Positions 1,049 to 62,381 of a DNA stretch of 64,000 nucleotides are shown here, piece by piece (the stretch's first letter is position 1; every line of letters starts with the position of its first letter). The stretch is taken from the IMG/VR virus record IMGVR_UViG_3300027921_000016, positions 1 to 64,000 of that record; one strand, given 5' to 3'. The stretch is from a virus. The notes under the pieces were generated by a model. The model had not been told where the DNA came from, did not search any database, and saw only the letters and a program-made list of their open reading frames with translations. A program made the position numbers and the translations under genes.

Positions 1049-1537
1049 TTATGCAATTGATTGCAATGACGAGGTGTTCAAGGCCTCACATTTGGCCTCG
1101 GCCTTCAGAGCGTCAGCCCAGGCACTCATGGCCTGTTCAGGTTCCAGGTGCTGAAAGTCACGGCCCATCGCATGGTAGAAGGGCCTACGGGCGTCGTCCA
1201 ACATGTCGCGGAGGGCGGTGTCGTCTTGGGGCTGATCAATGAAACCCGTCGCCGGGTATCGACCTTTCGCCCAGGCATTCAGAGAGCCGGAGACCGGGTA
1301 GTCGGGCTGCCCATACAGAGACGTGCGCAACTTCGCGTATTGATCCTCTGCTACCAATTTCCACGCTTCCGCACATTCCAGCAGCTTCGCCGCCCGTGCT
1401 TGGCACTCGGCCAACCGTATACGCAACGCAGTAACTTCCATAGATACTTGGTTTTTCACAATTTGTTGGCACTCGGCCAGGGCTTTCTCACTTTGTTCCA
1501 GTGCCGCAACCTTGGATTCTAGTTCTTTCTCGTTCAT
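1049..1537 (-). CDS. Hypothetical coiled-coil protein
   Basis: 162-aa ORF, heptad-like N-terminus, ATGA overlap with upstream gene. Confidence 0.7.
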   Translation of the reverse strand: MNEKELESKVAALEQSEKALAECQQIVKNQVSMEVTALRIRLAECQARAAKLLECAEAWKLVAEDQYAKLRTSLYGQPDYPVSGSLNAWAKGRYPATGFIDQPQDDTALRDMLDDARRPFYHAMGRDFQHLEPEQAMSAWADALKAEAKCEALNTSSLQSIA

Positions 1538-1794
1538 GCCCGCTTCCTATACGTTCGTGGGGTCTTGTCCGCGCTGGTAGGCACCACAGTACCATACCGT
1601 ACCATCTGCTCAAGGCGGTTATGCACCTGCACGGAAGTGTAGTTCCAGGCGACCATTGCCTCCTTCACCGTGAACTCCTGAGGTACTAGCTCAAGGAGTT
1701 TGGCTCTTAGCTTGTCAGCCTGGGCCTTCAACACGGCATTGCGCTTTTGGGATGCGGCGTAAGCCGCTGGCCTAGAATGGGGGTAAGTGCTCAC
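1534..1794 (-). CDS. Small basic protein, possible winged HTH
   Basis: 86 aa, FTVKEAMVAWNYTSVQVHNRLEQMVRYG; coupled to neighbours. Confidence 0.55.
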   Translation of the reverse strand: MSTYPHSRPAAYAASQKRNAVLKAQADKLRAKLLELVPQEFTVKEAMVAWNYTSVQVHNRLEQMVRYGTVVPTSADKTPRTYRKRA

Positions 1795-2092
1795 AAAACC
1801 ACCCTGGGTACGATGTACTTGTGGTCGTCACTGCGAACCTGCACCTCGTAGTTGCCAGGGGCAAGATTGTCTGCCGCCAGGGCACAGAGTTCGTCCAGAG
1901 CCCACCACCAAAACATCTTGAGCCATTTCATTTGCTTCTCCTTAGAAGACAGACAGCCAATATCAAGCCGGTGGCTACCCCAGCAGGTACACCATAACTG
2001 TACGTAAATCGTACAACCAATACAAGAATGAGTCCATCAGGCCCCCACTGCAATTGATTGCACACCCTGGAGCAGGTACTTCCTGGTCTCGT

Positions 2093-2470
2093 TCATCGTG
2101 CCCCCTTCGGGCCTACCATCCAAGTGGGAGGGCAGGGTACTTCCTGATTCTGTGGCCGCCACAAATGCAGACAGTGAGGGTGGTAGTTCACGTACACCTC
2201 AGCAGCCGGGTGGTACTGGATAGCCGTCTCGTCGTCCTTGAAGAACAGGGCCTTGATCTGGCACATTTCGTCCCAGTTCGGGGTACGCCCTCTGCGGGAT
2301 ACACTCACGTGATCCCAGCCCTCGCCCGCCGAGGCAATCACATACAGAGGCTTCTTGTCGATCACCGAGGGTACTACAAAACCCCCGTTCTCGTGGTCCC
2401 CACGTACTCCGTACACCTTGTTCTCTGCCTGTATGTCCCGGTAGGACTCCAGGTTATGCAGGTTCTTCAT
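2093..2470 (-). CDS. Conserved phage protein of unknown function
   Basis: GWDHVSVS..R.PNWDEMCQIK.LFF...QYHP...YVNYHPHCLHLWRP, a pattern common in phage proteins. Confidence 0.75.
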   Translation of the reverse strand: MKNLHNLESYRDIQAENKVYGVRGDHENGGFVVPSVIDKKPLYVIASAGEGWDHVSVSRRGRTPNWDEMCQIKALFFKDDETAIQYHPAAEVYVNYHPHCLHLWRPQNQEVPCPPTWMVGPKGAR

Positions 2471-2471
2471 A

Positions 2472-2873: not shown

Positions 2874-2907
2874 TTCGTCACTCCATTGACTGTTGAGGGG
2901 TATTCAT

Positions 2908-2935
2908 ACTATAACACAATCCCGGAGTTTGTCAA
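2908..2935 (-). promoter_or_regulatory. Sigma70-like early promoter
   Basis: TTGACA-AACTCCGGGATTGTGT-TATAGT. Confidence 0.8.
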
Positions 2936-2943
2936 TTATTTTC

Positions 2944-3549
2944 TTACTCCTGGGATGCAATTGGTTGCAGAAGCTCAGGGTCTTGACAGTTGACCATCCC
3001 AGTAGCATCAGGTCTGTGTTTACCGGTGTTCCAGTACCGGTAGTACGTACTACGGTACAGCCGCTTGAGCGTGCCCGTCCCGGTCTTGGTCTTGCCCAGG
3101 ACCTTTGGCGCCCGAATTTCCCGCACGTACAACCTGGAACCATTCTCGATGAACACCAGTATTCCTGCCCATTCCGGTACATGCTCGGGTATCTTGTACT
3201 TGGGTTCAAAGGTTCTACCTAGGTCTTTCCACCACCCCCAGCCTTCGGCCTTGTGCTCTTGCTTCTCCAGTAGGTGCTCGGGTACCGCGTAGTAGAATCG
3301 GCTCACGAACTTCCAATTCAGGCTAGTCCACTTGCCCTTCTTGGCGTCGATCTTCCAGTCCCCGTGTGTGAGCTTGACCTCGACCTCCCACATGTAATTT
3401 GCGGGGGTCACCAGTACGAAATCGGCCTCCCAGTCATACACATGGACGTTCGGGAAGCACTGATTCTGAGCGTAGTTGAAGAACGTACCGAGCGCAGCAA
3501 CACACTTACCCTCAGAATACCTCTTGGTACTCTCGATCTTCAGCATCAC
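2944..3549 (-). CDS. PD-(D/E)XK nuclease, MmcB-like
   Basis: EADF...EVEVK...DW..D..K and RFYYAVP motifs. Confidence 0.7.
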   Translation of the reverse strand: MMLKIESTKRYSEGKCVAALGTFFNYAQNQCFPNVHVYDWEADFVLVTPANYMWEVEVKLTHGDWKIDAKKGKWTSLNWKFVSRFYYAVPEHLLEKQEHKAEGWGWWKDLGRTFEPKYKIPEHVPEWAGILVFIENGSRLYVREIRAPKVLGKTKTGTGTLKRLYRSTYYRYWNTGKHRPDATGMVNCQDPELLQPIASQE

Positions 3550-4181: not shown

Positions 4182-5296
4182 CTTGCCTCCGGGGTCTTGT
4201 AGCAGTCATCCAGCAGCGCGTCTACATTATAGACATATCTCTGCAACCAGAGATCATCAACGATACCACATACAGGGCTGTACCCTACCGCCCCCTGTAG
4301 CACTTGACGAATGCCTCCGATGTCCCCAGCAGAACACAAGGCCTCCAGTGAGTTGACGGCAGACAGTACAGTCTTCCACGCAGGTATCGGTTCGTTCGCC
4401 ACCATTATCTCCGGGTGGGCAGTAGACCTCAAGCCATCCCCCAGGGTAAGTTCCTCATGTAGTTTCTCTCCGGGGCGAAGGCCAACAAACACTACTTCAG
4501 AATCCCTCCCCAGGTCCTCGATCATCCTGGTGGCGATGTCCACTATCTTTACAGCCTCCCCCATGCTAAGCACGTACACCCCACAAGGCATTACATGTGC
4601 TTGTAGGATCAACACAACCGCCTGAGAGACAGTCATGAAGTACCGATCCACCTGAGCGTGTGTGACCGTTACCGGTAGACCCGCCTCTATCTGCTCATAG
4701 AATAATGGGATTACCGAGCCGCTACTGCCTAGCACATTACCGAACCGTACCACCCTAACCCTGCCCTTCAACTTCAGATTACCCAAGGCCAGTTGTTCTA
4801 CCAAGGCTTTACTTGCCCCCATCAAGTTAGTCGGTCTGACGGCCTTATCGGTACTGATCACCGTGATAGCCTCCACCACAGGGGACGCGGCACACACGTC
4901 CAGCAAGTTCGAGGCAGCAAACACGTTGTTGCGTATGGCCGATACAGGGTTACGCTCCACCATCGGCACGTGCTTGTACGCCCCCACATGAAACACTTGG
5001 GACACCCCGTACACGTCTACCAACGAGGACACCAAGGAAGTGTCTCCGTAGCTGCCAAGCACCGGCACTGCAATTGATTGCAGCTTGCGATGCACCTCAT
5101 ACAGACGGTACTCATTATTGTCCAACAACACCAACTTCTTCACGCCGACACTGCCAAGCCGTGCACACAGGGCAGAACCAATTGAACCCCCAGCGCCCGT
5201 CACAAGCACGGACTTACCCCGCAACCCAGACACGTCAATAACCTCCTCGGTCGGGGTTTTACCCAGGAACTCCATCAACTTCTGTTCATTGAACAT
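4178..5296 (-). CDS. Nucleotide-sugar 4,6-dehydratase, PglF/CapD/WbpM type, soluble catalytic domain only
   Basis: TGAGGSIG, AYKHVP, STDKAV, MGASK (MxxxK), RFGNVLGSSGSV, GLRPGEKLHEEL. Confidence 0.92.
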   Translation of the reverse strand: MFNEQKLMEFLGKTPTEEVIDVSGLRGKSVLVTGAGGSIGSALCARLGSVGVKKLVLLDNNEYRLYEVHRKLQSIAVPVLGSYGDTSLVSSLVDVYGVSQVFHVGAYKHVPMVERNPVSAIRNNVFAASNLLDVCAASPVVEAITVISTDKAVRPTNLMGASKALVEQLALGNLKLKGRVRVVRFGNVLGSSGSVIPLFYEQIEAGLPVTVTHAQVDRYFMTVSQAVVLILQAHVMPCGVYVLSMGEAVKIVDIATRMIEDLGRDSEVVFVGLRPGEKLHEELTLGDGLRSTAHPEIMVANEPIPAWKTVLSAVNSLEALCSAGDIGGIRQVLQGAVGYSPVCGIVDDLWLQRYVYNVDALLDDCYKTPEAR

Positions 5297-8500: not shown

Positions 8501-9151
8501 TCAAACAAGACCCCAGGTAGCGCACTGCTTGACTATCACCAACGGGTCTGACTCCTGTGCAATCAATTGCAGAACAGAGTTGCCTCCACACCCATTGTGG
8601 ACGGTCTGAAACTTCACGGGATATCCAAACAGCCCCACATCCATGTAGTTTCTGCCTCCGGCCCCACTGTAGTACACACAGGCCCCTAACCGTGCTGAGG
8701 ATATAGCACAACGTAGCCTGCTAGTAGTATCCTCTCCAACGTACTCCTCCACTGGGCGCACATCCAAAGACAAACCCAGACCCTCTCCGACCTTCAAAAT
8801 CAACTCCATGTTCATAGGCGAGAGACGTGAAAACTCCATGGTCTCGTACTTCAGGAGCACATCCCTGACGGGCTCCAGCCGCGCACGGTACTTATTGGCC
8901 TTGCTCATCAACTCCTGCTCTATGGTCTTACGGGCCTTTGTGATCGAAGGCCCCCGCACAACAGCATCTAAGTAGGTCTTCCCATGGACATCTAAGCTGA
9001 TCCATCTACCCTTTATCCGGACACGGTAGTGCATACCCCCGCTCTCCAGAGCCACCATATCCAACGGTAAGTACACGTCGGTACTAGCCAACTTATTCCA
9101 GAACCCTGCCCAGGGAAGGAAATCAGGCTGGTGCACTGCTACTCGTAGCAT
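8501..9151 (-). CDS. WbqC-like protein
   Basis: HQPDFLPWAGFWNKL N-terminus; YYSGAGGRNYMD. Confidence 0.85.
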   Translation of the reverse strand: MLRVAVHQPDFLPWAGFWNKLASTDVYLPLDMVALESGGMHYRVRIKGRWISLDVHGKTYLDAVVRGPSITKARKTIEQELMSKANKYRARLEPVRDVLLKYETMEFSRLSPMNMELILKVGEGLGLSLDVRPVEEYVGEDTTSRLRCAISSARLGACVYYSGAGGRNYMDVGLFGYPVKFQTVHNGCGGNSVLQLIAQESDPLVIVKQCATWGLV

Positions 9152-9434: not shown

Positions 9435-10077
9435 TCTTAGCGACTATTGCCTGCCCCTCGGTTTCAAACCAACCAATATGCCGTTTCTTGTACACAACAC
9501 GCCACCTTGCTTTTCGTTTTTGATTCTTTGCAAACGAAACGCCTACTACAGTACTTGTTCTTTCTCCCACGTTTCTTGGCGGGAGGGCCTCAACACTGCC
9601 CGGTAGGTCTTCTTTCTTGAAGTTCAATATCGCAAACTCTCCCCGCTGTGCAATCGCAGCCAAATCACGGGCTTGTGCTGCCTTCAGTACTGAATCGTAG
9701 TACCCTACCGTTTGCTTACCCAATCGAGCGGCAAACACATTTGGGCTTTCTTGCCTCACACCCCGGTATCCGCAGGCTCCAACACTCTTATCAGAGTTCC
9801 AGGTATTCTGTTTATGCGTTGCCAGGCGTAGATTCTGCCTTCGGTTATCCAACCTCACTCTATTTACATGGTCTACCTGATATTCTGGGTCTCCCATAAT
9901 CAAGCGGTGCATCTGGATGTTTATCGTTCTGTTCTTATCGGTCTTACTACTGCCCTTTCGGTGGACTGCCGTTGCTGCGTACCCATTACGTAAATACCAT
10001 TTATACGGTGCAATCAATTGCAGGTCTTCTTCATCAACCTGCACTTTATGTCCTCCGTGTATCGTTATCGTAGCCAT
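9400..10077 (-). CDS. Free-standing HNH homing endonuclease with AP2-like domains
   Basis: MHRLIM..VDHVNRVRLDNRRQNLRLATHKQN; YRGV; AAQARDLAA; GGGAGAG SD before MATITI. Confidence 0.9.
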   Translation of the reverse strand: MATITIHGGHKVQVDEEDLQLIAPYKWYLRNGYAATAVHRKGSSKTDKNRTINIQMHRLIMGDPEYQVDHVNRVRLDNRRQNLRLATHKQNTWNSDKSVGACGYRGVRQESPNVFAARLGKQTVGYYDSVLKAAQARDLAAIAQRGEFAILNFKKEDLPGSVEALPPRNVGERTSTVVGVSFAKNQKRKARWRVVYKKRHIGWFETEGQAIVAKNEAENADKIST

Positions 10078-12941: not shown

Positions 12942-12970
12942 ATCATACCCCCACCCCCTCAGACTGTCAA
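12942..12970 (-). promoter_or_regulatory. Canonical sigma70 promoter upstream of the terS-terL-sugar operon
   Basis: TTGACA-N17-TATGAT. Confidence 0.65.
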
Positions 12971-13819
12971 TTGCTGTTCTACGGGTAACTTACCTATGGG
13001 AGTTACTACTGGAGGTAGGGGTTTGAGGTACTCCTCCAGAGCGGAGGTACTCAAGTTGCCGGTTGCAATCAATTGCAGTAGCGAGCCCAACACCTGATCC
13101 ACAGACCTCTGCTTACTCTTGCACCAGTCACACAGTACGAGAAACTGCATTTTTTCCTTCTTGGACATGCGAATCCAGACGTGCTCCTGTCCACCGAAGT
13201 CAAACACCATGTACCCCCAGGGTAGGGTGTCTCCGTACTCGGAGAACAGCTTGTTCAGCACCAGAGCGAGGCCGTCAATGGTCTTGATCTCCTTTGTTGC
13301 TTCCTCGAAGGCGGGCAACATCTCCGGTGGTAGGGACTTACCTGTAGCCTTCACCATCTTACGGAACTCTTCCTCACTGGTGAAACCGAATAGTTCAGAA
13401 GCTACCTCTTCCGTGTACTTCTCAGACAGCGACTGGTACATGGCCATGAACTTACTGGCCGACATTTTGCCTCGGATCAGGTTATGACGGACATTCTGGA
13501 ACTTCTCCTTGTCGTCGTCGAACTCAAGATCGGTGATGATCGTTACCGGTACCTGCTCCAGACCCATGAGCTTAGCTACCTCCCAGCGATGGTGGCCACC
13601 AACAATACGATAGGAACCGTCTTTAAGCGGTCGTACAAGCACCGGATCGGTGATCCCAATGGAGCCGATGTTATCGTACAGCATATTGAATTCCTGGTCC
13701 GACATCTCATTTGGGTTGAGCGGGTTCGGTACCAGGGAATTTACTGAGAGAAACGTGCGGGACAACGATGCGGTACGTTCTTCCGCTGTAGGGGCTACCA
13801 TCTGCAACTCCTTATGCAA
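12959..13819 (-). CDS. ParB/Srx N-terminal domain protein with possible HTH
   Basis: LVPNPLNPN...GITDPVLVR...YRIVGGHHRWEVA...VPV; YTEEVASELFGFTSEEE is HTH-like. Confidence 0.85.
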   Translation of the reverse strand: MHKELQMVAPTAEERTASLSRTFLSVNSLVPNPLNPNEMSDQEFNMLYDNIGSIGITDPVLVRPLKDGSYRIVGGHHRWEVAKLMGLEQVPVTIITDLEFDDDKEKFQNVRHNLIRGKMSASKFMAMYQSLSEKYTEEVASELFGFTSEEEFRKMVKATGKSLPPEMLPAFEEATKEIKTIDGLALVLNKLFSEYGDTLPWGYMVFDFGGQEHVWIRMSKKEKMQFLVLCDWCKSKQRSVDQVLGSLLQLIATGNLSTSALEEYLKPLPPVVTPIGKLPVEQQLTV

Positions 13820-16880: not shown

Positions 16881-16906
16881 ACTACCTCCTGCAATTGATT
16901 GCAATC

Positions 16907-18338: not shown

Positions 18339-19172
18339 TTACTGCATGGACTCGGGGACGTTCACCTTCATGTCGATCTCGGGCCAGATTTCGGAGATAG
18401 CGGTCAGCGCCTCCTTCCACCCCGCACCCTTGATCACGGACTGGACATCCACGTTGGCGGAGGACACCGTGCCGCCCAGATAGCCGGCGCAGATGTTCTC
18501 CAGGGCGACGGTATCGAACTCCGAGCCCAGTTCCCCCTTGGCCTTGGACAGCGCCGCCTGCACGATCTCCGACTGATCCATGGACAGCTTGAAGGTCATT
18601 TTCACGACCGCATCCGTGGTGGTGGTGGAGGTCTCACCGGTAGGGGACATCGTGGCCTTGAGTGCAGCCAGGAGTTCCAGAACCGTGAGCTTCTCGGCCT
18701 TGGCGACCCACTCGTCCACGTTGTCTAGTGTAAGGATCGGGGCGAGGTCCTTGAGTTTGGTCCAACCCAGGTGGCCGACCTTTTCCCAGGGAATCTGCTT
18801 GGTTACCAGATCGGTGTAGATGGCCATGAGGTACGCGGCTTTCCGGCCTTGGAAGCCGTACTTCTCGAAGACAAAGGTATTGAAGTCCGCGTAGCCCTCG
18901 AACCAACTGTTGTCCGAGATCAGCTTCAGAATACCGCCGAGCTTGAAGTAATTGGTTTCGATGTTCTCGGCCAGGTCGTCAGCCAGGTTCAGAGCCTTGA
19001 TCTTGGTCAGGCCTTCTACTTCTACCGCGATGTCCTGGATCAGGTTGCCGGTCTTCGCGGGTTTGACTTTGGCCTTACCAACGGCAACAGTTTCGGCCAC
19101 TTGTTCGGTGGCGGCAGAGCCTTCGACTACGGGTTCGGTACCGGTGGTTTCAACAGCGTCGTTCATGTTCAC
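18339..19172 (-). CDS. Probable DNA-binding protein (DUF3102-like middle region)
   Basis: YFKLGGIL...GYADFNTFV...GFQGRKAAYLMAIY...LGWTKL; own promoter; hairpin AGGGCCTG/CAGGCCCT after the stop. Confidence 0.55.
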   Translation of the reverse strand: MNMNDAVETTGTEPVVEGSAATEQVAETVAVGKAKVKPAKTGNLIQDIAVEVEGLTKIKALNLADDLAENIETNYFKLGGILKLISDNSWFEGYADFNTFVFEKYGFQGRKAAYLMAIYTDLVTKQIPWEKVGHLGWTKLKDLAPILTLDNVDEWVAKAEKLTVLELLAALKATMSPTGETSTTTTDAVVKMTFKLSMDQSEIVQAALSKAKGELGSEFDTVALENICAGYLGGTVSSANVDVQSVIKGAGWKEALTAISEIWPEIDMKVNVPESMQ

Positions 19173-19204
19173 TCCTTAAGTGGTTTGGTAATAATGCAGT
19201 CTTT

Positions 19205-19232
19205 ACTGTATCACAATTAAAAAGTTTGTCAA
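19205..19232 (-). promoter_or_regulatory. Sigma70-like early promoter
   Basis: TTGACA-AACTTTTTAATTGTGA-TACAGT; 14-mer 8 bp upstream. Confidence 0.8.
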
Positions 19233-19255
19233 GTGTTTACTGCAATTGATTGCAG

Positions 19256-20254: not shown

Positions 20255-20752
20255 TTAAAACAGCCGATGTACCCCATTGAGACCTGAGGTACCTCCTGTA
20301 GTCGCTACCTGTAGCCCTAGCCTAGCTAGAGCGTAGGCATCAACTATGTCATCCGATGAGCTAGTATACCCCCACCGGTCCTTTACTACTTCTGCCATAC
20401 GCACCTTATCAGCAGTACCCTTACCTGTCACCCATTTTTTCAAAGTAGTGGGCGGGCACTCCCAGGTGGGGATACGGGTAGCGTATAGCGTATGGCGTAT
20501 TATACTACCTATCTCAACTAGAGTCACAAGAGAATGCCTGTTGCCATAAGCATAGCCTTCGATCATGATGAGATCAGGGGCGGCCAAGACCCCCGTCCGC
20601 AACACCTCATCTGCAATTGATTGCAGGCGACGATAGCCTGTCTGCCCGTTAAACGCTATGGTTTTGCCTATAGCCGATACCTCCAACTGCCCCTCGACTA
20701 CCAGCTTCACCACCCCCGTACAGGTGGAAGGGTCCAGGCCAAGTATTTTCAT
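20255..20752 (-). CDS. ruvC: RuvC-like Holliday junction resolvase
   Basis: ILGLDPS, IEGY, KKWVTGKG.ADK, DIVDAYALA. Confidence 0.85.
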   Translation of the reverse strand: MKILGLDPSTCTGVVKLVVEGQLEVSAIGKTIAFNGQTGYRRLQSIADEVLRTGVLAAPDLIMIEGYAYGNRHSLVTLVEIGSIIRHTLYATRIPTWECPPTTLKKWVTGKGTADKVRMAEVVKDRWGYTSSSDDIVDAYALARLGLQVATTGGTSGLNGVHRLF

Positions 20753-21603: not shown

Positions 21604-22499
21604 GCTAATACCTCAAGTTCGGTGGGGTTGAACGTGGCCTTGTACATGCCTGAAAAACACTGCTTACACACAGAACAGGCTTTAGCCTGCTTATCCAGGG
21701 CGGTTGAACACACCCCAGAAGGGTACACCCCTTTCTGACCCATACCCACGGCCATACCTTGTTGCAGGTAGGGTATCAGGTCTTTGTCATCTCGCTTAAC
21801 CACGTACTCCTTGAACGGCAGTATCTCATCCAGAGTCTCGTGCTTCTTTCCATACCCCCGACTCACATAAAGGACTCGCCCCTCATGCAGATTGATCCTG
21901 TCCTTCCAAACGGAGGAGCTATCTGCAATCAATTTCAGGTACAGGTTGGTACGAATGCGGTGCTCGGGCAAAGGCACCTTAATGGTGGCGAAGTCGTCAA
22001 CATTCAGAATTTTTAACTCCACTACCTGCCACTTATGGCCCCCAAGATCGGCTAGTAGATCAACGCTGCCGGATATCCCAAACTGGGGACTCACAAACAC
22101 AGGCTCCACGTACCTCCAATGGTGAGTGCCTGAGTGAGAGGAGCATCCGGAGGTGCCTGGCTTGGAGGTCATCGAGGCCGTGGCTCCACAGGAGGCGCAG
22201 AACCAGTTGCCTATCGCGTATTCCCGCATCCACTCCTCAACCACCAGCCTGGCCGTGGCATTTCCCACATCAAACGTGGCCTGTAGTGCTGCCGTTACAT
22301 ACTGGTCTTTGAGAGGCTTATGCTCCTCCCGGAGGATCACCCATTTACGAGCACAGAACCTCGGCTTCGTAATGTCGGAAGCATGTAGAACCTGTATGTC
22401 CCTAGCAGGCTGCCACCCTCCCAGGTTCTTCCTGAGTAGGTCAATGACCCCTTTCTTAGGTGCCTGGGCGTTGGCCACTGCTACTTTAAGCCAGGACAT
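21600..22499 (-). CDS. Cas4-like PD-(D/E)XK exonuclease
   Basis: HASD...C.R; GSVD...VELK; LYL; C-terminal CxxCxxC. Confidence 0.75.
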   Translation of the reverse strand: MSWLKVAVANAQAPKKGVIDLLRKNLGGWQPARDIQVLHASDITKPRFCARKWVILREEHKPLKDQYVTAALQATFDVGNATARLVVEEWMREYAIGNWFCASCGATASMTSKPGTSGCSSHSGTHHWRYVEPVFVSPQFGISGSVDLLADLGGHKWQVVELKILNVDDFATIKVPLPEHRIRTNLYLKLIADSSSVWKDRINLHEGRVLYVSRGYGKKHETLDEILPFKEYVVKRDDKDLIPYLQQGMAVGMGQKGVYPSGVCSTALDKQAKACSVCKQCFSGMYKATFNPTELEVLA

Positions 22500-36843: not shown

Positions 36844-36867
36844 TCCATTGGGTTGAACTACAATCTT

Positions 36868-39258: not shown

Positions 39259-39286
39259 AATATACCACAATCCCGGAGTTTGTCAA
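39259..39286 (-). promoter_or_regulatory. Sigma70-like early promoter at the start of the early region
   Basis: TTGACA-AACTCCGGGATTGTGG-TATATT; 14-mer 7 bp upstream. Confidence 0.8.
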
Positions 39287-41466: not shown

Positions 41467-41796
41467 TCAGGCCCGTACCATTGCCCCGAACATCAGGACA
41501 TACGCAGCCAGTAGAAGACACACCCCGAGGAATACCAGACCCGCACCTGTTGGGTGTACACACGCCTTCTGTGCAATCAATTGCAGATCGAGACGATAAA
41601 ACAGAAGGCGACGAATGACGTGAGAGAGCGCCACTATGTAGAAGGCTCCACCGGTAAACAGTCCCCAAGGAGCTAGTGCCGGTTCATGAAAGAACTCAGC
41701 TACTGGGACGCTGGTGGACACCAATACTGTCCCTATGAGAACGAGCAGGGCCAGTCGAAGTATGTCCGGCAGGAGTACTTTCAGAAATCGGATCAT
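41467..41796 (-). CDS. Holin (3 TM)
   Basis: Three hydrophobic segments; directly upstream of the endolysin. Confidence 0.7.
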   Translation of the reverse strand: MIRFLKVLLPDILRLALLVLIGTVLVSTSVPVAEFFHEPALAPWGLFTGGAFYIVALSHVIRRLLFYRLDLQLIAQKACVHPTGAGLVFLGVCLLLAAYVLMFGAMVRA

Positions 41797-46687: not shown

Positions 46688-46956
46688 GGTATTACTCCTT
46701 GGTTAGGATGAATGGATCGCCGTCATAGTCGAGCGACAAGGCATTGTCGCTGGCGATAGCCTCGGCAAGCTGGAAATTTCCTATCAGCCCAGGCGCAGCG
46801 ATCACGCCCTGGCGGATCATTTCCGGGTGGGAATATGGAGTCCTGTGGTCCCGCCTGGCTGACTCACGGCATCAGACAACCGCGCCAGCTTACTTTGTTT
46901 TACCGTGAGCCCCATCGTGGTTCTCCCTCTGGAGGTCTACTGCAATTGATTGCAGA

Positions 46957-47664: not shown

Positions 47665-47725
47665 CGACTCCTGACTGCAATTGATTACACTGGCCTATTG
47701 TACCCCTGCCTTGGCCTCCGAGTAA

Positions 47726-50200: not shown

Positions 50201-52545
50201 TCTGGCACCATGTGATCCGCTACCCCTGCATTGTACACCTGGTTGTAGTCATGCCCCGCTACCAGGAACTTACGAGTGGTATCGAGATTGGGGAACTCGT
50301 AATCCCCCGCACTGTTGGACCACACTTGGTGTACCAGGGCTCCTGTAAGTTTGTCGTACAGCCGCACATCCCTAGTGGCCAGTACCCCTCCAACCCGCAC
50401 CGTTCCGTAGATTCGCCCCGACCCGCCACACAGCATGTTGCGTGTGTGGTGATCATCCAATGCAATCAATTGCACGTCGGCCGGAGGAGTGAAGGTCGGA
50501 ACAACGATGTCCGTATCCAGTACGGAAGAGGCTAGGCATTGTCCTAACGTGAGTATTTCCGGAGTTACTCCAAGGGCGTACAGAGAAAGGTCGTAAGGGC
50601 TATTCTTGATTATCTCAAGCTCGTCAATCTTACAGGGCGTGGTCGTTCCAACATTATAGTTTGCTCCTATGTACAAGGTGCCCACCGTCACGAAACTAAA
50701 ATCCTCATGGTAGAAGCCCCCTATGATCACCCCATCCTGGATGAATATATTCAGCCCCCCTACCTTCTGCCATACAAAATAATGCCTATTCGTGTTATGC
50801 GAATAAACAAAATTACACACGTCAGACGAAATACTATTGATGCCCACCTTCACCTTAAAACCACCATCCCCCATCAGTAACTGCCAATAGTTAGCAGCAT
50901 CCCCCATACACAGTAAAGCAGCAGAACTACCAGGAAGCGAATCCAGCTTATACCAGAAGCGTAGACAGAAGTTACCAGCCCCAAGCAAAAAATCGTTGGA
51001 AGTCGATACCAGCTTACCTGAGGAGGTGAACTTGGCAGCCGCCTCTCCAAACGCACTATCAGCACTGAATTCAGCGTCCCCCTGAGGCGTTACCGTATGC
51101 CCTTTAACATCGACAAAGGTAGTCACCCCCGAGGGGGCTGCCGTAGTCAAAGATAGTACAACCTTGTACCAGTGAGGATCGCCAACCACAGTCTCGGGAA
51201 AGGGTAGGCTAACCACATAATTCCCCGTGTACCTCCCCTCTCCAATCGTGAGGCGTACACAACTTACCTGGCCGTTAAGGTAATACAGGGAGGTGGCATT
51301 ATAGACATTAGCGCCTATCTTCAAAGGCGTGCTCGTTGCCTGCACGCTCTTAGACGTTTCGGTACCTCCAGCATTTAACAGTCCCCCGTTAACAAAGACA
51401 TACGTTCTTCCATTTTTCTTTGAAACCGCGAGGTCGTACCACACACCAAGACTGAACGTGTAGGCTCCTACCACGGTGTCGTAGACGACATTGGACCCAA
51501 AACTAGTAACCTGAAGAGAGGTCAGAGAAGAGGCCGTTCCTGTAACCGATACCGTAAATTCCCTGGAGCCCTCTACGTCCTTACAGATAATAGTAAAAGC
51601 GTAAGTTCCTCCATTGTCTACAGGCCACCCGGTGAACCTAACGGACGCCTCTACCGTGTAATCCCTGTCCCCCAAGTATAAATCCGGGGCACTTATTGAC
51701 GTTAGGTAATCCCCGTTACCATCGAACGTAAAACTGACTCCCCCAGGCAGACGGCTCTGGCCTGTAGTCACGGCTGCGTTCCCTACCCCTGTTACTACAT
51801 GCTTTTTCAAATCACGGAATTGAATCTGACCATCCATGTGCATGGCCAGTACCGTGCTCGCCCAAAATCCCCCACTCTCGGGAAACGCAGCAATAGGCAC
51901 TTCAAACACTTTATTAAGTGGAAACGAGCCCACGTACACCTGTAGGTCCTGCATGTAACACATAAGAGGCCCACCACTAGGGTTATAATTGACGGCCACG
52001 GCCATCCCACTGCTACTCAGGGATTCAGTACTCCTACCCACGCCAATCAACACCCTGTTAATCGCCAAGTACACTACACCCTCTACTCTGCCATAAGCCA
52101 CCTCGAACCACGAGTTCAAAGGAGCAGCAGCTCCGTATGAAACGACAGTGCTTCCTGCCTTCAGAACAGCCAGTTTACCCAGCGAGTCCACTGCCAACCT
52201 GTGCCCGTCCAAATTGCTTGAGTCTTCGTTAGTGAAAGTCAGCAAGTGCTTTATGACGGAAGGAAATTCTGGGAGTTTTACCCATGCCCGCACCCAATAG
52301 CTCCCAGTACCTACAGAAAATCTTACGTTTGCGGCCACACTTAACCGGGTATCGGTAGTCCCATCAAAATACCCAACGGACCTACCATCCCTGGTCTCGG
52401 TCGTAACTATCTTGGCCGCCCCACGTACTGTAATTACGTTCTGCTGAAAACTCCTGTCCAGGATGGCCGTAGAGTTGTCTACCCCATCAAACGGTAGATG
52501 CAGTACGCAATTCGCGTACATGGGATCGACTGGAACCGTAGGCAT
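50197..52545 (-). CDS. Tail protein with three tandem LamG/ConA-like domains
   Basis: Three units beginning VLHLPFDG / VLAMHMDG / VLSLTT; FDGNGDYL; DYTVEA. Confidence 0.8.
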   Translation of the reverse strand: MPTVPVDPMYANCVLHLPFDGVDNSTAILDRSFQQNVITVRGAAKIVTTETRDGRSVGYFDGTTDTRLSVAANVRFSVGTGSYWVRAWVKLPEFPSVIKHLLTFTNEDSSNLDGHRLAVDSLGKLAVLKAGSTVVSYGAAAPLNSWFEVAYGRVEGVVYLAINRVLIGVGRSTESLSSSGMAVAVNYNPSGGPLMCYMQDLQVYVGSFPLNKVFEVPIAAFPESGGFWASTVLAMHMDGQIQFRDLKKHVVTGVGNAAVTTGQSRLPGGVSFTFDGNGDYLTSISAPDLYLGDRDYTVEASVRFTGWPVDNGGTYAFTIICKDVEGSREFTVSVTGTASSLTSLQVTSFGSNVVYDTVVGAYTFSLGVWYDLAVSKKNGRTYVFVNGGLLNAGGTETSKSVQATSTPLKIGANVYNATSLYYLNGQVSCVRLTIGEGRYTGNYVVSLPFPETVVGDPHWYKVVLSLTTAAPSGVTTFVDVKGHTVTPQGDAEFSADSAFGEAAAKFTSSGKLVSTSNDFLLGAGNFCLRFWYKLDSLPGSSAALLCMGDAANYWQLLMGDGGFKVKVGINSISSDVCNFVYSHNTNRHYFVWQKVGGLNIFIQDGVIIGGFYHEDFSFVTVGTLYIGANYNVGTTTPCKIDELEIIKNSPYDLSLYALGVTPEILTLGQCLASSVLDTDIVVPTFTPPADVQLIALDDHHTRNMLCGGSGRIYGTVRVGGVLATRDVRLYDKLTGALVHQVWSNSAGDYEFPNLDTTRKFLVAGHDYNQVYNAGVADHMVPE

Positions 52546-57334: not shown

Positions 57335-57742
57335 TCAAACGGTTAAAAACTTCAGCTTCACGTTGTACCAGTCCGTAGAACCGTGGGCAGGGAACCCGGC
57401 TACAGGTGTTGCGTCCACGGGATTTTCTGAGGTTTTGAACACTACCGTGAACTCCCGTGTGTCTGTTGGGTATTCTAACACTAGCTTGTACTGCACGCCA
57501 GGGGCACTTGCCCATGCAATCAATTGCAGTACCGTGGACCTTGGCACCCACGCCATATCAGACTGAGGCGTCAAGGTGATGGGCCGCCCAGCCTGCTTGG
57601 TGCCAACATGGATAATCAACGCCCCGGTCACACCCCATTCTTCGGTACTCACAACCGGTACCCAGGTGTTCTCGTCCACCCACAACAAATCATTGGGGAG
57701 GTCGAGTACCACCGGTACTGTATCGAGGGTCTGAAGTTTCAT
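57335..57742 (-). CDS. Distal-tail-like protein
   Basis: LPNDLLWVDE..W; GRPITL; follows the tape measure. Confidence 0.7.
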   Translation of the reverse strand: MKLQTLDTVPVVLDLPNDLLWVDENTWVPVVSTEEWGVTGALIIHVGTKQAGRPITLTPQSDMAWVPRSTVLQLIAWASAPGVQYKLVLEYPTDTREFTVVFKTSENPVDATPVAGFPAHGSTDWYNVKLKFLTV

Positions 57743-57749
57743 GCTCTAC

Positions 57750-60700
57750 TCACTGGTAACTGGCTTTCATGGCATTCAACATGGATAGTAGGTCTTGCTC
57801 CCCACCTGCGGGCACAAATACATTGCTGGTCTTCTTGCCAAAGGACAGCTCGATCTTCATCATCGCACCTGAGGTACCAGGTTTCAGATTGGAGGTATCG
57901 TACTCACCAGCAGCCTTGTTGATCTTGGCCGTGGCCTCGTATTCGGCTGCGTACTGTGCTGCTGTCTTCTTGGCTAGGGCCGCCTGGGCGTCTGTTTCCT
58001 GCGCCGCCACTACCTTGGCCGCCGACACCTTGTCCAGGAGTTGCAATGCCTGGGTCAAGGCGGCAATGGCCACGCTGTCCTTGGAGGCGGTAGCTACTGC
58101 GAGCTGGGATTCAATCTCGGCCTTACGAGCAGCGGCATGCCGTACCTCCATGGCTGAAGTCGTGTTATTGATCTGGTCCCATTCATCAAGGAGCGAGGCC
58201 AGGGTACTCTGGGCGGTCTCCCGTAGTTGCTGCATACGTGCCACGGCATCGGCCAGAGCCTGCCTCAAGGGTAGGAGTTGCTGCTCCCCCAGAAGTCCGG
58301 AGAACGTGCCAGCCTCCCGAGCTTGATTCCCAAGTATTTCCCACCCTCTGGCAATATCCCAGACCGTAGCCCCATGAGACTTCAGGGACGCTACCAGGCC
58401 GGTAGACACCTCCTCCTGCTCCTTGAACCTGGCCGTCACAAATTCTGAAAACCGCCTGAGATCGTGCAGGTAGTTGCCGATGGACTGGCCAACGGCCCCG
58501 ATACTGCCCAGGGATTTGGTGAAGAACTGATCCGCTGCGTCACTCATGGACCGAAACTGCTGGTGGTAGCCGTTGATGATACTGCCCATGGCGCCACCAA
58601 GGTCTCGCAGATTTGCATGGAAGCCATTGATAAAAGACTGCATGGACCCAAGCTCCCCGGCCGTAGCCTGTGCCGCCGCAGTAGCTTGACTCCTGGCAAG
58701 GGCTAGGGCTTCAGCGGCAGTGGCCCCCATCCTCAGGAATTCCTCACCGGTCTTCCCGATCTCCACCGTAAAGTTGTGCTGCGCCGCCTCAGCCCGCACT
58801 ATATCCGGGATAATCCCGTTATTAGCCTCTATCGCTGCCTTTGCCCACTTACCCCAGGCGGTATTCTGGGTATCCAGGGAGGCTCCACTGGCGTCGATCA
58901 ACGTCAAGTTCTTACGAGCCTCGTCCGCTACTTGGATGAGAGCTTCCGTGGATTTCACCCCCAGCTTCTCATAGGCAGTAGTGACCCCTGGGATGGCGGA
59001 CTCCAGCATACGCACACCAAGGGAAGCGTCCTTCATGGACTGCACGGTAGCCTGACCAACGGCATCTACCTCGATCTTGAACCCGTGCATACCTGCTTGG
59101 GCTCTCAGGGTGCTGTCGGCCACCCCATTATTGGCTTTGATGGCCGCCTCAGCATAGGTTTTCCAGGCGGCGTCCAGGGTGCTACCTGCTGCCCCAAACT
59201 TCTGTAGCACCTCCAGGTTCTTCTTGGCCGTGTCTGCAATCAATTGCAGAGCCGCAGAGGTCTTCAACCCGAGACCCTCATACGCTGCCGCTACCTTGGG
59301 AGTCAGGGCCGAGAAGGCGTCAACCTGGGCGTGCAAGGCTTTTACCGCCTCAGTCCCAAGATTTACCCTGGTGCCATACTCCTTCACGGCCTCATGAAGG
59401 CGGGTAAAATCTTCTACCGACTTCGCGGCCTTCAGTTGCGTGTCGAATGCCTTGTCAAACTGCACGCCCATCAACTTGACTGCTTGAGTAGCCGCACCCA
59501 TAAGAGCCGTTCCCTCACGCAGGTTACCAAGATCGAGCAGCTCCTGGGCTCTCTTCTTGATGGCATCAACCGCAGCACCCACGGCGTTCAGGTCCAACAA
59601 GGTCTTGGCCGTGTCCAGGCCTTTCTCAAAGGCATCAGTGAACTGCTGGGAGGTAGTCAGGGCCGACGAGGCCATGGCCGTGAGCGAGCCAGACAAATCG
59701 ATCACGTTCTTGGTCACCCCGGTCTTCAACTCCTCGGTGGCGATGCCCATGTTCTTTACCGATGTACCCCAATCCTCCTGTAGCTTGGTCACAACCCCAT
59801 CCAAGGCGTTCATGGCCTTGGCCACTTCCTCGGGTGCTCCTCCGGCTTCCCCAAACTTGGTGATCGAGGCCGTGATCAAATCAACCGCCACCTTCTGCTC
59901 GGTGGAAGTCAAGGCATTGAGTCTCTGGGCTTCCGTGAGCTTACGTATATCCTCCTCGATGCCCTTGAACGAAGTAGCCTTACCCAGGGAGTCCAGAGAG
60001 ACCCTGGCAGCCTCCAGTTGCTTCTTCAAAGTCTTGGCCGCCTCTGCCCCGGAGGTAAACCCCGCCGGTAGTTCCTGGCCAGCAGCGATAGCCGAGTCCA
60101 CAAGCTGTAGAATCTGCTTATCCGTGAGCTTGCCCTGTTGGGCCAACTCTATCATGGACTTGACCGTGCGTGCCCCTGCCTCTTTCACATCGTCCAAAGA
60201 GATGGCTTGATCATCCGTAGCCTTGGAGAGCTTCTTGAATTCATCCTGCACCTGGGAAAAGCTCGTGGCCTTGCCAAAATCAGTGATCGCCAAGTGTACG
60301 GTCTTCACACCCTTCAGGAAATCCTGGGTGGCTGTTCGCCCATTGGCGAAATCCGTGACAATCTGGTCTGCCAGCTTCTCAGAAGCTTGACTGGTGTTGT
60401 ACAGCGATTGCGCGGTTGCCTTCAGAACCGTGGACAAGCTTCCAAGTCCGGGTACCATTCCTGCAAGCGCAGCAAGGGCTTCCGCGATATTCCCAGCCAC
60501 CCCGAGGAAGGCTGAGGCTACGATCAACACTCCCGCCCGCAAGAAAGAAAAGCCGTCCCTCAACCCCGCTACCACGAATCCAATACCCCATAACACAGCC
60601 TTAAGTGGGTCCCCTGCCTCTGACAGCCGAAAAAACGATGCAGCCAGTTGCACGATGTCCGTGATGATCCCCACCACGTTAGCCCCAATGGACTCCAGGA

Positions 60701-61715
60701 TGTCCACATTCGCGGCGACAAAACTGGCTATGCCTTCCACCACGTAGCTGATGGTATCTGCCAATTGCCCAATCACTCCACCAAAGTGCTTGCTGGCCTC
60801 CCCCGAGGAGTCCATGCCCTTGGCAATTGACTCCAGGTGCTTAAGCAGTAGTGTAGCGGAGTCCACGATAGCGCCATACGCAGGAAGCAGGTGCTGGCCA
60901 ATAGCCTGCGAGAGCTGCTCCTGGTATCTGGTCATGGACGATACTTTCTTGCCCACGGACTCCATCGAAAGCTCGTAGGCTCCTTGTAGCTTGGTGGCCT
61001 CCTCCAGTACCGCGTTATTGACCGCCTGAATCTTCTGCTGTTGTGTCAGGGCTGCCGTGGTCTTGTTGATGGACGTGGCAAACTTCTCCTGGGCTGCCTG
61101 GATATTGATGTTCAGGCCCATGAACCTCAGACCCATGGTATCCATTTGCTGGATGTTCGTGATCATCCGTTGGAACGTGTAACTACTGTTCTCACCGGTT
61201 ACAACCGCCAAATCCTGGGCTGCGCGAGCAAGACGCTCGACGTTACTGGTTGCTCCCGCAGTCATGGGACCAAGGGGCAGACCTGCCTGGATCATAGCGG
61301 TCATGGACGTGCGAGCAGCTTGGGTGGTAATCCCCAGCTTCTCAAGGCCCTTCTCATACCCGGCTATCTGATCCTTGGAGTACCCAGCGTTCTTCGAGAC
61401 CACCCCCAGGGTGATACCCAGGGTCTCCGATCTGGCTGCGTAATCCGCTAGTTCCTTGACCCCCTGCACGGCCAAAAAACCCACAAACGCGGCGGCCGCC
61501 GCCTTGATGTACCCCGTTAGCTTACTATACCCCTCCCCCATGGCCTCAAGCTGGGTCCCCAACTCCTTTCCTTTATGGGACATCACAGAGGCGCCATGGG
61601 CGGCATCCGTACTGGCCGAACCGACCCCCCTGATGTTGTCAACCACAGTACTCAGGTTGTTCATGCCGTCTATGAAAGCACGGATTCGTATGTCAAGGTT
61701 TGCAGTAGTGGTCAT
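57750..61715 (-). CDS. Tape measure protein
   Basis: 1321 aa, Ala-rich helical, hydrophobic central segment; follows the chaperones. Confidence 0.92.
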   Translation of the reverse strand: MTTTANLDIRIRAFIDGMNNLSTVVDNIRGVGSASTDAAHGASVMSHKGKELGTQLEAMGEGYSKLTGYIKAAAAAFVGFLAVQGVKELADYAARSETLGITLGVVSKNAGYSKDQIAGYEKGLEKLGITTQAARTSMTAMIQAGLPLGPMTAGATSNVERLARAAQDLAVVTGENSSYTFQRMITNIQQMDTMGLRFMGLNINIQAAQEKFATSINKTTAALTQQQKIQAVNNAVLEEATKLQGAYELSMESVGKKVSSMTRYQEQLSQAIGQHLLPAYGAIVDSATLLLKHLESIAKGMDSSGEASKHFGGVIGQLADTISYVVEGIASFVAANVDILESIGANVVGIITDIVQLAASFFRLSEAGDPLKAVLWGIGFVVAGLRDGFSFLRAGVLIVASAFLGVAGNIAEALAALAGMVPGLGSLSTVLKATAQSLYNTSQASEKLADQIVTDFANGRTATQDFLKGVKTVHLAITDFGKATSFSQVQDEFKKLSKATDDQAISLDDVKEAGARTVKSMIELAQQGKLTDKQILQLVDSAIAAGQELPAGFTSGAEAAKTLKKQLEAARVSLDSLGKATSFKGIEEDIRKLTEAQRLNALTSTEQKVAVDLITASITKFGEAGGAPEEVAKAMNALDGVVTKLQEDWGTSVKNMGIATEELKTGVTKNVIDLSGSLTAMASSALTTSQQFTDAFEKGLDTAKTLLDLNAVGAAVDAIKKRAQELLDLGNLREGTALMGAATQAVKLMGVQFDKAFDTQLKAAKSVEDFTRLHEAVKEYGTRVNLGTEAVKALHAQVDAFSALTPKVAAAYEGLGLKTSAALQLIADTAKKNLEVLQKFGAAGSTLDAAWKTYAEAAIKANNGVADSTLRAQAGMHGFKIEVDAVGQATVQSMKDASLGVRMLESAIPGVTTAYEKLGVKSTEALIQVADEARKNLTLIDASGASLDTQNTAWGKWAKAAIEANNGIIPDIVRAEAAQHNFTVEIGKTGEEFLRMGATAAEALALARSQATAAAQATAGELGSMQSFINGFHANLRDLGGAMGSIINGYHQQFRSMSDAADQFFTKSLGSIGAVGQSIGNYLHDLRRFSEFVTARFKEQEEVSTGLVASLKSHGATVWDIARGWEILGNQAREAGTFSGLLGEQQLLPLRQALADAVARMQQLRETAQSTLASLLDEWDQINNTTSAMEVRHAAARKAEIESQLAVATASKDSVAIAALTQALQLLDKVSAAKVVAAQETDAQAALAKKTAAQYAAEYEATAKINKAAGEYDTSNLKPGTSGAMMKIELSFGKKTSNVFVPAGGEQDLLSMLNAMKASYQ

Positions 61716-61720
61716 GAGCG

Positions 61721-62310
61721 TCAGTCGGTTAAACTCTTCAAAGCCGTAGCCATGCCTTCTTCAGTGCCCCTGGCAGCAACTGCCCCTAACCGCAACCCTA
61801 TGGCCCTGTCCCGCTTGTCCTTACGGAAGGAAGCCTTGAGGAACGCCAGATACTGGGACCAAGTGTACTCCAGGATGTCCCCATACCGGTGCCCGCTGCT
61901 TATCAGGTCTTGGAAGGCATCGCTCCAGGAAGTTTGATTTTGCTTGCGACCCCGAGCAGCCGCTCCAGAGCCTGTGATACGGAGGGGAACAACCTCTGGA
62001 TAAAAAAATCGAGGTTCACCTCGATGACCTTGGTGGTGACCGTGATAAGGTCGTCGGCCTTAAGTTCCATCACCCAGTCCACTTCCCGACCCAGCATCAG
62101 CGCCACCAACTGAACAATCTCGTCCGGGTACTGGAGCACGAGAGCCCCGACATCCACGGGCTTCTTCGGGTCCTTGAATTCTTGCAGAACCGGGGCCACT
62201 AACTTCACGATCTGCGTGAGTTGTTTCACCTTCAGTTCCGGGATTACGATTTCTTCCCCGCCGATGAGTACGCTCTGAACCTCGGGGATCATGGTAGTAA
62301 GGTCACTCAT
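61721..62310 (-). CDS. Tail assembly chaperone G (61903-62310) with -1 frameshift product GT
   Basis: T TTT TTT slippery heptamer at 62002-62008; -1 frame open to 61721 encoding WSDAFQDLISSGH..DILEYTWSQ. Confidence 0.85.
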
Positions 62311-62381
62311 TGTCCTACTCCTAAGAATAAGAGGGGCATGTAGCCCCTCTCGTGGTTCCCTGCAATTGATTGCACCTGGGG

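Follow-up and report, generated by a model that had tools for sequence, protein, structure and literature searches.

Noc, SlmA and MatP are cellular proteins that read dispersed palindromes of 12-16 bp (NBS, SBS and matS, respectively) as dimers and mark or organise DNA; Noc is a relative of ParB. Their sites are distributed regionally and are not known to be conserved codon by codon. Cluster A mycobacteriophages carry stoperators (L5 gp71), near-identical sites of 13-14 bp that occur by the tens in a temperate phage genome and have a sequence that co-varies with lineage. These sites are asymmetric, mostly intergenic and oriented with transcription. The IncP plasmid RK2 carries 12 OB operators for KorB (PMC11790492). 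Cluster O mycobacteriophages carry a 17-bp dyad repeat, TGTTCGG-NNN-CCGAACA, in more than 30 copies per ~70-kb genome; its role is unexplained, and the authors proposed a dimeric regulatory protein (PMC4351075). Here we describe a lattice of 14-bp sites, TGCAATTGATTGCA, in a phage genome from IMG/VR (record IMGVR_UViG_3300027921_000016; 97,848 bp), the first 64 kb of which are the stretch analysed (64,000 nucleotides, hereafter the window). The Cluster O repeats are the nearest described phenomenon, the same kind of feature with another sequence and in another lineage.

In the window, the pattern TGCAATNNATTGCA has 24 exact matches, 12 with the centre TG and 12 with the centre CA on the plus strand (Table 1). 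TGCAATTGATTGCA thus written occurs 12 times on either strand, and other centres have no match. Dinucleotide-preserving shuffles of the window (n = 100) yielded 0 matches. The complete record holds 39 exact copies against an expectation of 0. The site is a near-palindrome in which 6-base inverted arms surround, without exception, a non-palindromic TG/CA centre. An earlier reading of the window from its letters alone (the sequence-only reading) had reported the 24 perfect copies, 12 per orientation, the fixed central dinucleotide and five copies that are one base off, and all of these were found again on recounting. Its term "palindromic site" holds for the inverted arms but not for the site as a whole. 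The record ends in a 55-bp terminal repeat that looks like an assembly overlap, and nearly all genes of this phage lie on the minus strand.

The sites are evenly spread, with an average spacing of ~2.5 kb along the genome. Gaps in the window range from 0.8 to 3.8 kb, with exceptions of 5.4 kb and 7.1 kb in the tail-gene region, in keeping with the 1-3.5 kb and few long tail-region gaps described before. The coefficient of variation of the gaps is 0.53 here and 0.44-0.72 in seven other genomes, versus ~0.95 for random placement, and this evenness is significant (P <=0.004) in seven of the eight genomes. Genomes that carry variants of the site are spaced equally evenly.

Most copies are written into genes. 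About 27-30 of the 39 (~70%) lie inside open reading frames (ORFs), in every usable frame, and translate as [LMV]QSIA, [LMV]QLIA, AIDC, AINC or CNQL. These peptides occur ~31 times in the proteome, nearly always encoded by the exact 14-mer, and the codons used are minor ones (TCA, 9% of Ser; GCA, 20% of Ala). In 300 synonymous-codon shuffles, which preserve every protein and the codon usage of each gene, the mean was 0.44 copies and the maximum 4, versus 30 observed in genes. This supports selection on the DNA itself and not on the peptide, as the sequence-only reading had argued from codon choice. Intergenic DNA makes up less than a tenth of the genome and holds about a third of the copies; an intergenic site typically starts 0-7 nt past a stop codon. 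Three copies lie in insertions without counterpart in relatives (the intein-like inserts of DnaB and the SNF2 helicase, and an insert of a MuF-like protein), so new insertions also acquire sites or bring them along.

Large insertions are a feature of several genes of this phage. They interrupt DnaB (31175-33448) at aa 187-526, the SNF2 helicase (25002-27353) at aa ~112-455, the DNA polymerase at aa 284-528 and 748-1344 and the portal at aa 353-681. They are missing in DLP5, G001, G003 and G021 (related phage genomes carry G numbers here) and match terminase and primase PHROGs that contain inteins. Inteins probably interrupt at least four essential genes here.

The lattice is shared by a large group of phages. 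A scan of IMG/VR for the 14-mer returned many contigs of ~95-100 kb with multiple copies. Used as a DNA query, 7 kb of the window had no match in the phage collection. Whole records contain 50 copies in G001, 47 in G005, 30 in G003, 23 each in G017 and G025, 22 each in G004 and G007 and 20 in G008. The sequenced genomes span 47-62% GC. The nearest isolates are the Stenotrophomonas phages DLP3, DLP5 and Summit, and DLP5 has 26 exact copies. Together, the site and its lineage variants were found across ~20 related phage genomes with GC contents of 45-62%. The variants share the core GCAAY-NN-RTTGC. They include CCGCAATCAATTGCGG in G016 (22 evenly spaced sites), TGGCAATCAATTGCCA in G021 (52-63 copies), the asymmetric TGCAATCAGTTGCG in G020 (39 sites in a complete genome), and CG-centred and TGCAAC forms in G019 and G006. 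Overall, the variants have T, C or G at position 1 and T or C at position 6, with CA, CC or CG as the centre. Contig206 of the isolate genome of Paracoccus sp. MKU1 (96,368 bp) carries 35 copies of the variant TGCAACCCGTTGCA; it probably represents a member of this phage supergroup that resides as a plasmid-prophage in an alphaproteobacterium. Degenerate sites (<=2 mismatches) number 15 per 50 kb in Vibrio phage SIO-2 and 9 in Rhodobacter phage RcZahn, versus 0.1 expected.

Between proteins that are only 30-55% identical, 30-60% of the coding sites occupy homologous codons. Examples are the PPDK-like kinase (~codon 375), ThyX (~107), the N-terminus of the ParB-nuclease/MuF protein (~120) and the ParB_N protein (~247). 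Judged by this positional conservation, the sites are old. The centre can differ at one homologous codon, with CA in one genome and TG in another. Such a flip requires a CG or TA intermediate, and CG and TA centres are rare in most genomes.

Two relatives differ in other respects. G002 (38.6% GC) has 9 copies of the 14-mer only; a GC-rich hairpin (GGGCCCTTTCGGGCCC type), probably a terminator, is present there 11-16 times. In the Acidobacteriaceae metagenome-assembled genome (MAG) G029, 19 sites and the genes for p277 and the ParB_N protein (both introduced below) are confined to the first ~50 kb of a contig of 374,533 bp, and site orientation switches at ~24 kb. Either the phage is integrated there or the contig is chimeric.

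A full-text literature search with both strand forms of the 14-mer did not find the motif. The word "palindrom" does not occur in the DLP3 and RcZahn papers, and the searchable literature on DLP3/DLP5, SIO-2-like vibriophages and RcZahn makes no mention of the lattice.

The mode of recognition is suggested by the bases around the core. Immediately flanking the 14-mer, the bases are symmetric and specific to the lineage: C/G in this phage and G003, T/A in G001 and G005, G/C in G004 and G007, and A/T in G010. Within the 14-mer, the outermost base also varies in a symmetric way, giving a CGCAAT half in G016 and a GGCAAT half in G021. At individual sites, complementarity between the left and right flanks (positions +-8 and +-9) is not above chance within the genome. 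This speaks against a stem in RNA or single-stranded DNA and for two half-site readers on duplex DNA, and a hairpin or cruciform was rejected on the same ground. Sites of the ParB/KorB type are palindromes of 13-16 bp; here, we find a near-palindrome of 14-16 bp with symmetric flanks and a non-palindromic centre. That centre is non-palindromic in every lineage and G020 has two unlike half-sites, so the site is intrinsically polar.

Orientation varies among genomes. On the coding strand of this phage, 23 copies have the CA and 16 the TG form, with a ratio of 15:15 inside genes; the in-frame TGA in one frame of the TG form by itself predicts a ~60:40 excess of CA. Most genomes use both orientations. 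The sequence-only reading had set the sites apart from polar stoperators by their balanced orientations, which stands for this genome but fails in G003, G007 and G010, where the CA form is on the coding strand in 29 of 30, 21 of 22 and nearly all copies, respectively. A search for a gene specific to these three polar genomes found none.

Some sites border transcription units. The whole genome contains ~13 strong, sigma70-like promoters of nearly identical sequence (TTGACAAACT, ~17 bp, extended -10 TGTGGTAtAgT); those in the window are listed in Table 1, and seven more lie beyond it. At six of the ~13, a site in either orientation ends 7-8 bp upstream of the -35 box, and at ~10 operon boundaries a site lies between the stop codon and the -35 box. 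The arrangement recurs in G001, G005, G008 and G010 with a spacing of 4-12 bp; it was looked for and not seen in G003, DLP5, G004 and G006. Promoter adjacency is common and not universal, and use of free intergenic space may be a partial cause. Each promoter is also followed, ~35-45 nt downstream, by a conserved leader or Shine-Dalgarno-like element, TCAATGGAGTGA, that is also present in DLP5 and G021. A second repeat, AAATATATTTTCA(AAAA), occurs 23-33 times in G007, where several copies begin directly after a 14-mer (e.g., oriented positions 14855, 33577 and 46684). It may represent another type of promoter in the position that TTGACA promoters have here.

Several classes of signal were set aside. 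In the phage contigs of the MAGs G029 and G030, the 12-mer core was counted 19 and 11 times, versus 2 and 1 times in the scanned remainder (~4.65 Mb and ~4 Mb; neither is a Stenotrophomonas genome). With host-level density absent in both, an uptake sequence was rejected, as was a generic host signal, which the sequence-only reading had named as a result that would count against it. Although the replication/recombination module (window ~18.3-38 kb) is all that G016 shares with this phage, sites tile G016 from end to end. It lacks homologues of this phage's terminase (TerL), structural, PPDK and ThyX genes. Its 22 sites without the terminase module led us to reject a packaging (pac/TerS) signal, and the absence of the other modules a DNA-hypermodification signal. 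The comparison supports a link between the lattice and the replication/recombination module.

The phage encodes a PPDK-like kinase (L167:5909-7840), a PTP-type phosphatase (L167:4332-4820), ThyA (window 20749-21603), a dCMP deaminase (29341-29799) and amino-sugar genes (3546-9151). This set suggests DNA hypermodification. DLP3 DNA resisted all 15 restriction enzymes tried (PMC7326821). A literature search on DUF3102 returned nothing relevant.

We propose that the 14-mer, 16 bp with its flanks, could be the high-affinity operator of a phage-encoded protein that binds duplex DNA as a dimer. The symmetric lineage-specific flanks, the absence of stem-like covariation, the even spacing and the near-absence from the rest of two MAGs all point to docking sites, which are probably read by a protein of the phage. 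Selection would maintain one site per ~2-3 kb genome-wide, intergenic where possible and otherwise written into codons. The most likely reader would be p277 (277 aa, encoded at 18339-19172), with a putative ParB/KorB-like helix-turn-helix domain and no CTPase domain, and the ParB_N protein (12959-13819) could be an accessory partner in the lineages that possess it. We give this explanation as a whole, operators of a dimeric phage protein that is most likely p277, an even chance. The narrower identification of p277 as the reader is that of the best candidate, at slightly less than even.

p277 has a hidden Markov model match in every site-bearing genome in which the replication region was sampled, including G004, G006, G002, G030 and G033. 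The sequence-only reading had offered four possible binders, and when their co-occurrence with the motif was checked across relatives, only p277 showed so complete a distribution. The initiator (33997-34971, DnaD-like) is missing from G004, G006 and G033, the MerR-type protein was not found in G002, G006 and G030, and the ParB_N protein, which had been favoured, is also missing from some site-bearing genomes. p277 is 50-70% identical among relatives, which places it among the best-conserved non-structural proteins. It has more than 660 metagenomic homologues, as well as homologues in DLP3, DLP5, Summit, RcZahn, SIO-2-like vibriophages and Rhizobium phages, and a distant one on the Paracoccus contig. 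In DLP5, the p277 homologue is gp066 (YP_009619961.1), while gp114 and gp059 are the ParB_N and MerR-type proteins, respectively. Another protein, p254 (27529-28293), was set aside as a reader, with a gp32-like single-strand-binding protein as the lead.

The AlphaFold2 model of p277 (pLDDT 77) resembles DNA-binding domains of the ParB family. With VIA-align, aa 45-177 matched the ParB DNA-binding domain on parS (6s6h; Z 7.7, root-mean-square deviation 4.3, 112 aligned), Spo0J (1vz0; Z 7.5) and the KorB DNA-binding domain on its operator (1r71; Z 6.7), as well as SopB, VirB and P1 ParB. The protein is predicted to form a homodimer with an ipSAE of 0.71 (best control 0.00). Among proteins of solved structure, 20 of 30 same-chain pairs and 1 of 23 single chains reach this value. 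At least 85% of contacts are shared between runs, with a partner pLDDT of 79 or more.

Several observations weigh against this explanation. The fold scores of p277 are modest (ParB-type Z <8, in a helical domain), and its top structural match is Raf1 (Z 9.2). It has no sequence match in the PDB, alone or as a profile, and no Pfam family, and comparison of its family with the ParB_N family by hhalign was not significant. A Foldseek search against the PDB returned nothing significant and weak ParB rows only. p277 has no ParB_N domain; stop-to-stop ORFs of distant homologues contain no Pfam domain, and no longer fused relatives were found. A simple homodimer explains neither the centre that is never palindromic nor the unequal half-sites of G020, and the near-uniform orientation in G003, G007 and G010 is not predicted for a symmetric reader. 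The p277 gene has its own promoter and an upstream site here, and in ~9 of 20 genomes a site lies <=100 bp upstream. Protease and portal genes carry conserved upstream sites equally often, and an argument from autoregulation was dropped as not specific to p277. A search of the genome in six frames found no ParA (CbiA family; positive controls worked) and no tyrosine integrase, so classical partition is not supported. Finally, RcZahn is reported to be apparently virulent (PMC8601537), which makes a role in lysogeny alone uncertain. Its solely degenerate sites fit relaxed selection, or equally a role not tied to lysogeny.

If p277 or another phage protein does bind the sites, KorB-OB on RK2, Noc-NBS and ParB-parS offer analogies: the whole phage chromosome could be coated, bridged or silenced by the bound lattice. 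At boundaries between stop codons and -35 boxes, the bound protein may block read-through or modulate the promoter. The role that we favour is a genome-wide nucleoprotein one, for which KorB-OB, Noc-NBS and phage stoperators are the nearest functional models; the lattice might silence or insulate the one-directional transcription programme and organise or segregate an episomal genome. DLP5 is temperate and persists as a phagemid, and DLP3 forms stable lysogens (PMC5834331, PMC7326821). Drawn from analogy, genome-wide silencing, organisation or segregation is a tentative assignment, possible rather than probable. We also entertain an unlikely extension, in which the lattice would be a mark of genome identity: a CTPase-less ParB-fold reader and a polar near-palindrome every 2-3 kb might discriminate self from host DNA for replication, recombination or anti-defence, or provide ParA-less upkeep of a plasmid-prophage, across a very large set of phages of 80-120 kb, in Proteobacteria and beyond.

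The ParB_N protein could itself be the reader, as a CTP clamp of the ParB/KorB/Noc type that loads at each site, slides and covers the genome continuously. The sequence-only reading had favoured it as the binder, with the sites marking the whole chromosome through a dimeric protein. The docking-site appearance stands, but this choice of binder is not supported as it was put. The protein is a genuine member of the ParB/Noc/KorB family, with a Pfam ParB_N match (E 7e-12) and Foldseek matches to the N-terminal and DNA-binding regions of ParB, Noc and KorB (E 3e-8 to 1e-7). The gene itself holds a positionally conserved site and lies 1-9 kb downstream of the p277 gene in many genomes. However, no homologue was detected in the complete, site-rich genomes G020 (39 sites) and G021 (63) with a custom hidden Markov model or with Pfam ParB_N in six frames. 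G001, G003 and G004 have only weak, differently placed ParB_N ORFs, and confidence in the structural model is low outside the N-domain (pLDDT 62). We regard the ParB_N protein as an unlikely reader. In G004, a distant p277 homologue is followed directly by two weak ParB_N ORFs (G004:C1:49483-53948), a gene order that would fit a two-gene ParB-like system.

The link to the replication/recombination module seen in G016 could also mean that the sites are substrates of a DNA transaction, either nick or cleavage sites or Chi-like self marks. The module includes a UvsX-like recombinase, a Cas4-like exonuclease, two resolvases and the SNF2 helicase, and would drive recombination-dependent replication. 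Even spacing over the whole genome is typical of self marks such as Chi and uptake sequences, and the always non-palindromic centre and the polar genomes agree with an intrinsic polarity. RuvC prefers to cleave at (A/T)TT↓(G/C). The TG form contains ATTG twice, which we take as a resemblance to this preference and a lead only. No site-specific nuclease was identified, though, and the Paracoccus variant has no ATTG. Chi-like sites are short and strictly polar, whereas the present ones are 14-16 bp long, occur in both orientations and flip at homologous codons; they were rejected as a class. A DNA transaction in general appears rather improbable.

A third reading invokes an immunity repressor, such as the MerR-type protein, that would bind the sites in the manner of stoperators and silence the 98-kb one-directional programme in a plasmid-prophage, with the flanks setting immunity type. 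The temperate lifestyles of DLP5 and DLP3 and the phagemid state of DLP5 (PMC5834331, PMC7326821) are compatible with it, as are a stoperator-like number of 26-63 sites per genome, outer positions that vary by lineage, the adjacency to promoters and the predominance of one orientation relative to transcription in G003, G007 and G010. The MerR helix-turn-helix was confirmed. The 12-bp core, however, is invariant across proteins of 30-55% identity, unlike fast-evolving immunity specificities. About 70% of the copies are intragenic, both orientations are used in most genomes, and the seemingly virulent RcZahn retains degenerate sites (PMC8601537). Together with the patchy distribution of the MerR-like protein (see above), this leaves an immunity repressor distinctly unlikely.

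A conserved host protein might instead read the sites, with the phage titrating or recruiting a host regulator. This would explain a core that is invariant over 45-62% GC. The 14-mer fits the operator pattern of the LacI/GalR family, TGnAAnCGnTTnCA, at all positions but the centre, presumably no more than a lead, and a six-frame search of the genome found no LacI-type helix-turn-helix. Outside their phage contigs, the two MAGs have almost no copies of the motif, flanks and even half-sites change between close phage relatives, and the hosts span Gamma- and Alphaproteobacteria, with one contig binned with an Acidobacteriaceae MAG. A host reader is very improbable. Least credible is an RNA or single-stranded DNA hairpin (a processing site, nut-like site or priming signal), for which potential stems of 5-7 bp and the gene-co-oriented copies of G003, G007 and G010 (a third of those in G003 sit 12-70 nt upstream of start codons) are outweighed by the 15:15 orientation inside genes here, flanks without site-by-site complementarity beside a stem that is short alone, and the invariance of all 14 bases, not just the pairing ones.

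Table 1. Coordinates of the lattice sites, candidate readers and promoters in the window.
Feature	Position	Strand	Context
Exact site	1052..1065	+	Overlaps final codons of 162-aa ORF (QSIA*); 8 bp upstream of -35 TTGACA
Exact site	2049..2062	+	Small-ORF start or intergenic
Exact site	5069..5082	+	394-aa gene, codon 94 (QSIA)
Exact site	8558..8571	-	216-aa gene, codon 194 (QLIA); same codon position in G005
Exact site	10009..10022	-	276-aa ORF, codon 70 (QLIA)
Exact site	13064..13077	-	ParB_N gene, codon 248; homologous position in DLP5, G005
Exact site	16890..16903	+	Small-ORF start or intergenic
Exact site	19241..19254	+	Intergenic, 1 nt past stop codon; 8 bp upstream of -35 of promoter preceding gene 18339-19172
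Exact site	20612..20625	+	RuvC-like gene, codon 43; homologous position in DLP5, centre flipped
Exact site	24159..24172	+	RecA/UvsX-like gene, codon 20; homologous position in G001
Exact site	26355..26368	-	SNF2-type helicase, codon 329, within lineage-specific intein-like insert (aa ~112-455)
Exact site	27137..27150	-	SNF2-type helicase, codon 68 (AIDC); homologous position in G005, G008
Exact site	30716..30729	+	168-aa gene, codon 69; homologous position in G008
Exact site	32633..32646	-	DnaB, codon 268, within lineage-specific intein-like insert (aa 187-526)
Exact site	34102..34115	+	DnaD-like gene, codon 286; homologous position in G005
Exact site	36904..36917	-	Overlaps final codons of AAA ATPase gene; 8 bp upstream of -35 TTGACA
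Exact site	39294..39307	+	Past terminator-like hairpin; 7 bp upstream of -35 TTGACA
Exact site	40484..40497	-	94-aa gene, codon 11
Exact site	41572..41585	-	Endolysin-like gene, codon 28 (AIDC)
Exact site	46941..46954	+	Intergenic, 2 nt past stop codon
Exact site	50461..50474	-	782-aa tail-region gene, codon 691
Exact site	57515..57528	-	135-aa gene, codon 72
Exact site	59235..59248	-	1321-aa tape-measure-size gene, codon 823
Exact site	62361..62374	+	Intergenic, 7 nt past stop codon
One-mismatch copy (TGCAATTGGTTGCA)	2956..2969	+	20 bp upstream of -35 TTGACA
One-mismatch copy	21924..21937	-	TGAAAT half, form common in Vibrio phage SIO-2
One-mismatch copy	28677..28690	+	
One-mismatch copy	34948..34961	-	CGCAAT half, form fixed in G016; start of DnaD-like gene
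One-mismatch copy	47676..47689	+	
Candidate reader p277 (277 aa; phrog_17202; no Pfam family)	18339..19172	-	Helical domain aa ~45-177 ParB/KorB-like; predicted homodimer
ParB/Noc/KorB-family protein (ParB_N protein)	12959..13819	-	ParB_N domain aa 23-97 plus helical region
MerR-type helix-turn-helix protein (phrog_19880), second candidate reader	24584..25000	-	
Sigma70-like promoter (TTGACA, ~17 bp, extended -10)	19203..19232 (approximate)	-	Directly downstream of site 19241
Sigma70-like promoter	36866..36895 (approximate)	-	Directly downstream of site 36904
Sigma70-like promoter	39257..39286 (approximate)	-	Directly downstream of site 39294
Sigma70-like promoter	1014..1043 (approximate)	-	Directly downstream of site 1052
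Sigma70-like promoter	2906..2935	-	
Sigma70-like promoter	31138..31167	-	

The lattice is one of the strongest cis-acting constraints seen in phage genomes, with a word that stays invariant across GC contents of 45-62% while proteins drift to 30-50% identity. The phage family is widespread, judging by the more than 660 homologues of the candidate reader, and the lattice points to a DNA-protein system that acts along whole genomes in it. Cultured members include phages considered for therapy against Stenotrophomonas maltophilia, which makes both the reader and the role of the sites directly testable.

Among the known systems, the sites of Noc, SlmA and MatP differ from the phage lattice, which is evenly spread and conserved at homologous codons. 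Stoperators resemble it in their tens of near-identical sites and their lineage-dependent sequence; unlike them, the present sites are near-palindromic, ~70% coding and found in both orientations in most genomes. KorB and its OB operators are similar in that a short palindromic operator is spread across a mobile genome, with some copies by -35 boxes and others far off or intragenic. A ParB-family helix-turn-helix reader that exerts global control of the element would be a further likeness, if the candidate with its modest Z scores is such a reader. KorB, however, carries an N-terminal CTPase domain and acts together with IncC (ParA) and KorA, whereas the candidate reader has no such domain and the phage no ParA. 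There are 26-63 evenly spaced sites versus 12, and the ParB_N protein is not universal.

The Cluster O repeats match the lattice most closely. Both comprise tens of copies whose inverted arms are invariant around an asymmetric centre used in either orientation, and both occupy genes as well as the DNA between them. The Cluster O repeats are absent from the host and the present sites nearly so, and related phages share positions of copies, most of them in Cluster O. Their sequence, phages and hosts (Actinobacteria) are unrelated to those described here, and the Cluster O genomes that were compared are near-identical. Beyond what is described for Cluster O, the present lattice occupies homologous codons at 30-55% protein identity and over 45-62% GC, and it has a measured evenness, lineage-specific flanks and a named candidate reader. 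Identifying what reads it may also explain the repeats of the Cluster O mycobacteriophages.

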